The notes below the pieces were generated by a model that had not been told where the DNA came from, did not search any database, and saw nothing but the letters and a program-made list of their open reading frames with translations. A program made the position numbers and the translations under genes. Shown here piece by piece: positions 3,086-55,736 of a stretch of DNA of 64,000 nt; position 1 is the first letter of the stretch; the number at the start of each line of letters is the position of its first letter. The DNA comes from Leucoraja ocellata (taxonomy: Eukaryota). Location: the NCBI GenBank assembly GCA_036785375.1, contig JAWMAR010000044.1:2852001-2916000 (forward strand), given 5' to 3'.

Positions 3086-3353
3086 TAGACAATTGCTGAG
3101 TGGGCCTCCTCTGTTTTTGCTGGGGAGCTTTAGCCGTTGTGGCAAGTAATGAATGTCCACTTGGTAATCATGTGCATCGTCCCATCTGCGCCTGCATAAT
3201 TCCAAGTTTGCTGACGAGACACAAAATCTCAGTGAGATTATGACTACAGAGGAGGTGCGAACATTTTTTAGACTTTCGTCTTTAGAGATACAATTTGAAA
3301 ACACGTACTTCAGTCCACTGAGTCCATGCTGACCAGCGATCACCTAGTACACG

Positions 3354-3494
3354 TCTTCTTCTTGCGTATGGCGTGCACAGCCTAAAGATGCAGGCCAACT
3401 TGTTCTATTTGATCTTATTTGATTGTGCACGCTGGGTTGATTGCATTGGTCAATAATCAGGGCGGACCACGTGAAGGTTGCAATCTCCCACCCC
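3354..3494 (-). mobile_element. Short non-autonomous element with 5' HDV-like ribozyme and Vingi-like (AAG)n tail
   Basis: TSD acctagtacac (3342-3352) / acctagcacac (3495-3505). 3' end reads ccatacgcaagaagaaga. Internal 9-bp inverted repeat at 3371-3379 / 3424-3432. Confidence 0.8.
3439..3494 (-). ncRNA. HDV-like (CPEB3-type) self-cleaving ribozyme with minimal P4
   Basis: GGGGTGG-GA-GATTGCA-ACC-TTCACGT-GGT-CCGCCCT-GATTATTGA-CCAA-TGCAATC gives a 7-bp P1 with G1.U wobble, a 7-bp P2, a 3-bp P3, a 7-nt L3 and a C-N-A-A J4/2. Confidence 0.8.
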
Positions 3495-4979
3495 ACCTAG
3501 CACACTAACTCTAATCTACACACAATTTTACAATTCTACCGAAGCTAATTAACCTACAAACCTGTACGTGTTTGGAGTGTGGGAGGAAACCGGAGCACCC
3601 GGGGCCAACCCACAAGGTCACGGGGAAAATGTACAAACTCCATACAGACAGTACCCGTAGTCAGAATCGAACCCGGGTCTCTGGCGGTGTAAGGCAGCGA
3701 CTCTACTACTGCGCCACCACTTTCTAGCCATTCCCTCCACAGATGCTGCCTTACCCCTGAGTTACTGCAACACTCTATATATCACCACAGATTCCAGCAT
3801 CCGCTGTTCTTTGTGTAGTCAGCATCCTTTTCAATTTAATAGGGGGGTAAATGGGACTGATGTAGATTGACATCATAGTTGGCACAGAAGAAGTGAGACA
3901 AGATGGCCCATTTTCGTGCTATGTAATTCTATGATCATAGAACAGCCAGTGAATATCTAAAGCATTGATGGAAATCTGTCTGAACACAAAATCCATTTGG
4001 AGTTATGCCTGGGCTGAACAATAAGGCTCAACTTCAGATATAAAACAAAGCATTAAATTGACAACTCGCTGCACTGATCAAACCAGTAACCATGAGTAAA
4101 TTAGTAGTTCTGCTTAATGTGTAAAAACCTTCTTATTTCATTGTCTGCTGCCATGAATGATGAAAGATGGCATTTATTGCTTCGAATTAAAAGGTAGTGG
4201 CAGCTGTTTATGAGAGCTTTTGTTGTTAGAAGAGGCAGAAATCATTGTTTGAGGTGGTACTGACTGAACTTAATATGATAATTGAAAATTCCAGCATTTA
4301 ATAAAGATCACACCTGCTGGTTCACTGTTCTGTTCACTTATAAGCCATTTGCAACTTAAGCAAAAAAAAAAAATTAACTCTAAAAGTATTCACGGCCCGT
4401 ATTTTGTTGCCAAAGAGCTGGCCAGTATGATGGGTTGTCTCATTATTCATGAGGTAATTGACCTGCATCGTGCAAGAAACACAATACACTCAACATTTGT
4501 AAAGATGAGGGAAATTCCCTAATACAGAGGTAGATTTTAAGATATTCTCCTTGAACAAGAATGTTGTGATATCACACTTGTTGATGCTAATTTGATTCTG
4601 CTTGACCAATTTTGGGCAATCTGATTCAACTTTCAAATGACCAAATATATCTACAGTTACCTGCATGTTAGTTATTATGTCATTGTTACCTTTGCATTGA
4701 TGGAGTTGCTATGTTACTCTAAGAACCTGTGTCATGTAATTAACCATTGAATGTACCATACTTCAACTCAGTTGGAGAGTTTGTAACTACTGATCAAAAC
4801 ATGTATACTTGATGCTCCCAGCTAAATGAATTGCATAATTCTGCATCTGACTGACTGATTGATTGATTGAAAGATAAGGATACAGGTGGAACACAGTCTC
4901 CTTGGCTCACCATATCCAAACCAAGCATCAATCACCCGGTCACACTAGTTCTATATCGTCCAAAAAAAAAGCATAGTGG

Positions 4980-54790: not shown

Positions 54791-54914
54791 AAAATAAACA
54801 CTGAGGTTTATAAAACTTTGGAATCCTTTACGTCAGGGTCTGTGAATATCTAGTCCTTTGTAATTTCAAGGCAGAGATCAATAGAATTGTGAACACCATG
54901 GGAATCATAACATA

Positions 54915-55736
54915 GGCTGCACCCTCAGCCCCCTGCTCTACTCACTCTATACTCATGACTGTGTAGCCGGACACAGTTCGAACTCCGACGACACCGCCAT
55001 TGTTGGACGAGTTATAAATGTTGATGAGTCAGAGTATAGGAGGAAGATTGATCGACTGACTAAATGGTGCCAGAACAACAGCCTTGCTCTCAACATCAGT
55101 AAGACCAAGGAAGTGATTGTGGACTTTGGAAGAGGAAGAATGAAGATGCACAAACCTGTCATCATCGACAGAACGGTGGTGGAGAGAGTCACAAGCTTCA
55201 AATTTGCGGGCGTGCATCTCTCGAAAGATCTGTCCTGGACCCAGCCCATCGATGCAATCATAAAGAAAGGACATCAACGCCTCCACTTTCGTCGAAGATC
55301 GAGGAGATTCAGTATGTCGACAAATACTCTCTTGAACTTCTACAGGTGTATAGTAGAAAGCATATTGACTAGTAGCATCACAGCCTAGTTTGTCAACTCA
55401 AGCGCCCAGGAATGAGGAAGAATGCCGCCCAGTCCATCACAGGTACTGGCCTCCCCACTATCGAAGGGATCTACAAGAGTTGCTGCCACAAAAAGGCATC
55501 CAGCATTATCGGACACCCACCCTGGCAAGCTCTCATTTTACTACTGCCATTGGGAAGAAGGTACAGGAGCCTACAAACTGTAACTTCCAGGTTCAGAAGT
55601 AACTTCTTCCCTACAACCCGGGTTGTAGGGAAGAAGTTCATGTTATTAAACACTACGACCTCCAAATAGGCCCGAACTATATGGACTTGAGGTCATTAAT
55701 TTTTTTCACTACTATTGTCTATTTATTTGTCTGTTT

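Follow-up and report, generated by a model that had tools for sequence, protein, structure and literature searches.

The window analyzed here is a 64,000-nucleotide stretch of DNA that carries, on its minus strand, a 142-bp non-autonomous element (3353..3494) with ~94% identity to its closest genomic relatives. The insert begins at G3494 (G1) and ends in (AAG)3AC, the (AAG)n tail itself lying at 3363-3355. An 11-bp target-site duplication with one mismatch brackets the insert, with one copy adjoining G1 (3495..3505) and the other behind the tail (3342..3352). The initial annotation had described a 141-bp mobile element whose G1 abuts the duplication; mobility and the junction directly at G3494 were both borne out, but the length was one base pair short. 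The element sits in the body of another repeat (3719-3260, minus strand), presumably a tRNA-derived SINE. On the same strand, that repeat contains an A-box-like motif (3716-3706) and a B-box-like motif (3673-3664), and the repeat could supply read-through transcripts.

When the minus strand is read for pairing, the first 56 nt of the window copy (3439..3494) contain all helices of an HDV-type double pseudoknot except P4. From this pairing and from cross-family covariation, the segment is a predicted minimal, P4-less HDV-like ribozyme that would cut 5' of G3494. P1 (3494-3488/3465-3459) includes a G1.U wobble (G3494.U3459) and one further U.G pair, all seven P2 pairs (3485-3479/3445-3439) are Watson-Crick, and P3 is formed by ACC/GGT (3478-3476/3468-3466) around the L3 sequence TTCACGT (3475-3469). 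For P1.1, G3458 can pair with the third L3 base, a C, giving a single C-G plus a U.U. The J4/2 segment, CCAA in the window copy, opens with C3449, the predicted catalytic base, and P4 is replaced by a linker, which measures 7 nt in the window copy and 5 nt in the majority sequence of the family. Our reading agrees with the initial annotation on the P1, P2, and P3 coordinates, the wobble, a possible P1.1, a nearly absent P4, and C3449 as putative catalytic base, a position that holds C in 21 of 22 sampled copies. Chance formation of the fold was ruled out by its 26-nt core, which has a single occurrence in the window and none in 100 shuffles, and by the genome-wide dispersal of the family. The single-strand folding energy of the element was unremarkable (z +0.54) in a folding program that does not model pseudoknots.

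The family is dispersed throughout the genome. From the 1,969 candidates of a DNA search, 40 were scored and showed 93-100% identity. A 20-mer taken from mid-element had 9,310 exact matches in the genome (reversed control, 0), a lower bound as regards diverged copies and one drawn from an assembly that contains duplicated stretches. The genome-wide family envisaged by the initial annotation is thus real and comprises thousands of dispersed copies, with at least that many exact-motif matches; near-identical sequence is also present in DNA sequencing runs of five organisms. To compare 5' ends, we took the first 30 copies on contig 1 that match an internal motif, a choice made irrespective of the 5' end; seven of the 30 share flanks with another locus. 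Within this sample, 29 copies align from nt 1-4, target duplications of 8-15 bp are detectable in 28, and the duplication ends at or on G1 in 25, consistent with the anticipated pile-up of 5' ends at G1. Removal of the seven flank duplicates and one 5'-truncated copy left 22 copies, half of which (11/22) retain an intact core (all pairs plus core bases). Non-CpG divergence among the 22 amounted to 23/976 in the ribozyme versus 53/998 outside it, as counts without tree correction. The family-majority head is 54 nt long, with the linker GT-TTCGA followed by CGAA or CTAA. The window copy departs from the sample majority by seven substitutions and a 2-nt insertion, all outside helices, and the insertion and three of the substitutions fall between P1 and P2'. 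Elsewhere in the genome, ~2-3 kb units are tandemly amplified (L119-L131, G000:C1 19.26-19.43 Mb), each with a subfamily B copy in the same flanks.

Both ends of the short element derive from a LINE. In contigs aligned to one copy, from two organisms, a different recurrent sequence joins at element nt 101. This joining motif has 518 genomic matches, and the sequence upstream of it encodes the C-terminus of a reverse transcriptase (RT). The last 40 nt of the short element (3353..3392 in the window, minus strand) correspond to the LINE's last codons, stop, short 3' UTR, and tail, including a TAG stop inherited from the LINE open reading frame (ORF) (3384-3382, minus strand). Walking 5' from the RT ORF, we found its start preceded by the ribozyme head, with 84-90% identity over nt 1-77 (3416..3494 in the window, minus strand). 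At 5 of 20 fetched loci (L174-L177, L186), head and tail are 2.8-4.2 kb apart, with target duplications beside G1. The partner LINE is ~3 kb long, with a single ORF encoding an apurinic-type endonuclease (APE) and RT, and it shares the G1 start and (AAG)n tail of the short element. Pieces of its ORF match PF03372, PF14529, and PF00078, and an intact relative (P0001, 1019 aa, 71% identical over the queried 286 aa) has only those three domains; a PDB search returned only distant matches, to L1, R2, and group II intron RTs. All LINE copies examined were broken, and no active driver was seen among them. The short element is therefore derived from the LINE through internal deletion, consisting of the LINE's first 77 and last 40 nt with the interior deleted and no ORF. 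The intervening ~23 nt (3393..3415, minus strand) are absent from the LINE as a contiguous stretch and are diagnostic for the short family. An I-like LINE family returned by the PF14529 search was rejected as the partner, being unrelated to the element. That family (L031-L060) is abundant and apparently young, with open frames of up to 1268 aa.

This origin overturns the initial proposal of an independent SINE-like element, as head and tail both come from a full-length LINE that starts with the same 77 nt. The accompanying statement that the element has no tRNA head stands: the head is a LINE 5' end, and Rfam returned no small-RNA match, which also disposes of a classical SINE with a tRNA, 7SL, 5S, or snRNA head. 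We assign a very slight probability to an independent class of ribozyme-headed SINEs, in which a small RNA head directly related to the CPEB3 ribozyme was captured onto a LINE tail. The lack of an ORF, the high copy number, the ~23 middle nt, and an L3 and GT/CGAA context identical to those of CPEB3 would all suit such a capture, but the full-length LINEs with the same 77 nt as their own 5' end largely refute it. The P2, P3, and P4 regions also differ from the Rfam CPEB3 consensus, and the CPEB3-like heads lie in another branch of the RT tree (95/100).

That tree has 20 rows; its ribozyme-headed elements are all united in one clade (100/100), and the CPEB3-like heads form a sub-branch without the short element's LINE. 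We consider the partner LINE likely to be of the Vingi type, a name reached indirectly, through the heads of sister families, in a tree that contains no named Vingi protein. No RNase H domain was matched by Pfam on five LINE pieces or among the precomputed domains of P0001, and Vingi is described as a compact single ORF without RNase H, unlike Ingi (PMC13708176). Vingi is also among the clades, with Ingi, RTE, and R2, that give two-ended derivatives (PMC5786205). Placement in another clade, Ingi proper or RTE, would leave the mechanism unchanged; we see only a small chance of it. The RT tree places no named reference protein, and RTE elements are likewise single-ORF without RNase H. Against it, the absent RNase H is the feature that separates Vingi from Ingi (PMC13708176), and heads of sister families in the same 100/100 clade resemble, by eye, the printed Repbase 5' ends of Vingi-1_BF, Vingi-2_SPur, Vingi-2_Gav, and Vingi-4_Crp (PMC5786205 supplement).

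Ribozyme heads also precede related RT frames outside this genome. Among 19 metagenome RT relatives, a structure descriptor placed an HDV-like head upstream of five, four of them distinct (L260, 2722-2788; L266, 12-84; L299, 3117-3189; and L311), versus 0 of 950 shuffles, and gave no match for the other 14. The L299 head reaches 55.6 bits on RF00622, and the L266 head has the short element's geometry and P3, but its P1 and P2 differ and it possesses a genuine P4. Another short family, F5 (~165 bp, 1,825 candidates; L334-L353, about 1501-1670), has an AAG tail and target duplications and differs in sequence from the short element. Its head has a CPEB3-type P3, a 6-bp P1, no P4, and the same J4/2 CCAA as the window copy.

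An Rfam scan of the window copy returned no ribozyme at E<=10, so the match to a CPEB3 or HDV model that the initial annotation proposed to look for was not obtained. A near-majority copy scored 14.4 bits to HDV-F-prausnitzii (cut-off 44), and RF00622 (cut-off 35 bits) matched neither the window copy, L018, and L016 nor the LINE copy L177. Support for the fold therefore comes from covariation. Within the short family, covariation is weak because copies decay neutrally, and cross-family comparison alone is informative. We aligned 11 heads with MAFFT, leaving out L311 and decayed C3 copies; four rows belong to the short element's own family, and one row has a misaligned P2. Across this set, 95.4% of 196 cells pair, compared with 71.0+-2.2% after shuffling, a control inflated by the relatedness of the rows, and 37-48.5% after sliding. 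Compensatory changes occur in P1, P2, and P3, as the initial annotation had expected of its stems, with 12 of 18 pairs changing on both sides across related families. P1.1 consists of one invariant C-G pair, without covariation. Once 5'-end decay and CpG decay are set aside, the LINE and short-element heads differ at J4/2 position 2 and in a P1 pair altered on a single side (U-A to U.G).

We regard it as highly probable that the short element is a copy, lacking coding capacity and its interior, of a LINE that likely belongs to Vingi, and that it opens with a minimal HDV-like fold whose predicted cut falls exactly before G1. A copy would be transcribed inside a longer RNA, by read-through or from an internal promoter; the ribozyme would then release the precise 5' end, perhaps also shielding it, and the LINE protein would bind the LINE-derived 3' end in trans, with insertion of the RNA through target-primed reverse transcription. 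Release of the short RNA by self-cleavage is, on the pairing and covariation, strongly favored, and by analogy with established non-LTR biology, mobilization in trans by the LINE protein is almost certainly how such an RNA would be copied. Alternatively, the head could act mainly as an internal promoter or protein-binding fold, with G1 as the transcription start and the fold non-cutting or too slow. An internal promoter starting at G1 would also give uniform 5' ends. The 77-nt head of L1Tc, homologous in position, works as a promoter besides being a ribozyme, and among trypanosome SIDER heads some that fold well were inactive in vitro (PMC4035085). With such a dual head on record, the word "promoterless" in the initial annotation describes no more than a possible property of the short RNA. 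The absence of P4 and a P1.1 of one C-G pair plus a U.U point the same way. This alternative is nonetheless unlikely: the C at the catalytic position persists in 10 of 11 heads (the exception being the misaligned row) and the following A in 11 of 11, despite turnover of the helix sequences, and in vitro activity is documented for HDV-like ribozymes that have no P4 (PMC10879173).

Folding and duplex calculations point to a second structural element, a predicted head-to-tail helix. A 9-bp complement joins a 5' arm just behind the ribozyme (3424..3432, minus strand) to a 3' arm in the 3' UTR (3371..3379, minus strand). The comparison covered the short element, its LINE, C1, C4, and F5, with one copy per family and window sizes that we set. 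In all five elements, from four families, the best partner for the 22 nt that follow the ribozyme is the 28-nt stretch immediately ahead of the tail of the element's own type. The duplexes range from -12.8 to -18.5 kcal/mol, values as low being reached in 0-23 of 1,000 shuffles. Such a helix would close the RNA into a loop, which could account for a need to keep both ends. On these models, we lean moderately toward head-tail looping of the RNA. Inverted nt ~7-77 are found at the 5' end of many truncated LINE copies (L066, L079, L080, L089, L106, L165, and L168), an arrangement that may arise because the looped head would adjoin the 3' end during reverse transcription. The ribozyme head is likewise inverted in L240 and L244, and most of the interior is missing from such copies.

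The relationship to the CPEB3 ribozyme is one of lineage. The two share a seven-base L3 with an ACGU palindrome, a weak P1.1 (C-G plus U.U), a G1.U wobble, and a J4/2 layout with C first (bioRxiv 10.1101/2022.09.22.508989). The RF00622 consensus has a P3 of GCG/CGC and a 7-bp P4, whereas the short element has ACC/GGT as P3, an unrelated P2, and no P4. CPEB3 is also a single-copy intron element, and the short element is a mobile family below any Rfam threshold. The label "CPEB3-like" in the initial annotation accordingly fits L3, P1.1, and J4/2 but not P2, P3, P4, or the RF00622 score. Direct orthology to CPEB3 was rejected on these differences, on the sub-threshold score, and on the location of CPEB3-like heads in the other RT branch. 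Those heads belong to sister families in the same genome. Of 59 candidates scored in an RF00622 search of the genome, 56 exceeded the cut-off; an APE-RT frame akin to that of P0001 follows 6 of the first 10 and 3 of 20 others. The cut-off is passed by four or more sister families, at 35-64.7 bits: C1 (L198/L200), C2 (L199/L240), C3 (L354-L360), and C4 (L243/L248). C1 scores highest (64.7 bits) and looks young, its copies being 96-97% alike. C3 is closest to the CPEB3 consensus; compared by eye, L354 agrees with it at 55 of 62 positions, both P4 arms included, and has one insertion. L354 has neither the 5' strand of P1 nor an ORF, and its family has seven motif matches, one of which adjoins an inverted RT fragment.

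Because sister heads are near-copies of CPEB3 and a single RT clade is supported, the short element is, as judged from sequence, a cousin of the CPEB3 ribozyme. The initial idea of a mobile CPEB3 relative therefore survives as a link of lineage, the near-copies sitting on sister families and not on the short element. A Vingi origin of the mammalian CPEB3 ribozyme appears likely, exaptation of a Vingi head being the simplest reading. It is suggested by sister heads that match at up to 55/62 positions, including the catalytically dispensable P4 arms, and by the similar look of the Vingi ends that Repbase lists for crocodilians, sea urchin, and lancelet. The likeness of CPEB3-type cores may also reflect convergence on a constrained fold. 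More broadly, we find it reasonably probable that the Vingi clade starts with HDV-like ribozymes, that a Vingi 5' end was domesticated as the CPEB3 intron ribozyme, and that the short element is a stripped-down branch, in which a 54-nt P4-less ribozyme and a head-to-tail helix would suffice for release and copying of a 140-base RNA. The occurrence of HDV-like ribozymes in sea urchin, lamprey, and lancelet has already been published, as has their dispersal by retrotransposition (PMC8256844, PMC6765202). In the paper on ancestral CPEB3, term searches turned up nothing on transposons or ribozyme origin (PMC8233481). Our literature search found no paper tying Vingi to a ribozyme or to CPEB3, although an earlier mention is still possible.

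Ribozyme-headed deleted LINEs are already known; what is notable here is a P4-less predicted ribozyme in an animal retroelement and the lineage link to CPEB3. The closest parallels are NARTc/L1Tc and RIME/ingi of trypanosomes (Pr77 head, L1TcRz), where short non-autonomous copies of the two ends of Ingi-group LINEs share with them ~77 5' nt that form an HDV-like ribozyme from the element's first base (PMC4035085). Unlike these, the short element has an animal host, a partner without RNase H, a predicted P4-less 54-nt ribozyme, and an (AAG)n tail. R2 SIDEs of Drosophila are also internally deleted LINE derivatives, and the R2 5' end is a self-cleaving ribozyme (PMC3414825), but R2 is rDNA-specific and uses a restriction-like endonuclease, whereas the short element is dispersed, APE-driven, and present in thousands of copies. 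Vingi derivatives (Vingi-1_EE deletions, SINE2-1_ACar, and SINE2-1_AMi) have the same bipartite structure of 5' and 3' Vingi sequence (PMC5786205). Minimal HDV-like ribozymes (drz-Mtgn-1, theta ribozymes) likewise lack P4 and place the catalytic C first in J4/2, but nearly all are from phages, often behind tRNAs, whereas here the fold heads a retroelement. The tRNA-linked forms were absent from the eukaryotes searched in that study, which calls the origin and role of minimal forms open (PMC10879173).

The short element gives P4-less HDV-like ribozymes, known so far chiefly from phages, a place in eukaryotes and a candidate job. It also points to where the best-known human ribozyme probably came from, a question that the CPEB3 papers searched do not address, and this origin can be checked through Vingi remnants beside the mammalian locus. 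The Vingi clade is under development for RNA-guided gene insertion (PMC13708176), and the short element is a natural minimal template for it, with ribozyme, head-tail helix, and 40-nt tail. With an intact core in half of the sampled copies, thousands of potentially self-cutting RNAs could cut host transcripts when lying in sense orientation in introns. Two further repeats were observed in the window. A fragment of another RT frame, unrelated to the short element, lies at 54885-55388, and a long near-perfect inverted repeat at 2519-2657, which draws spurious miRNA matches, is probably a miniature DNA transposon.
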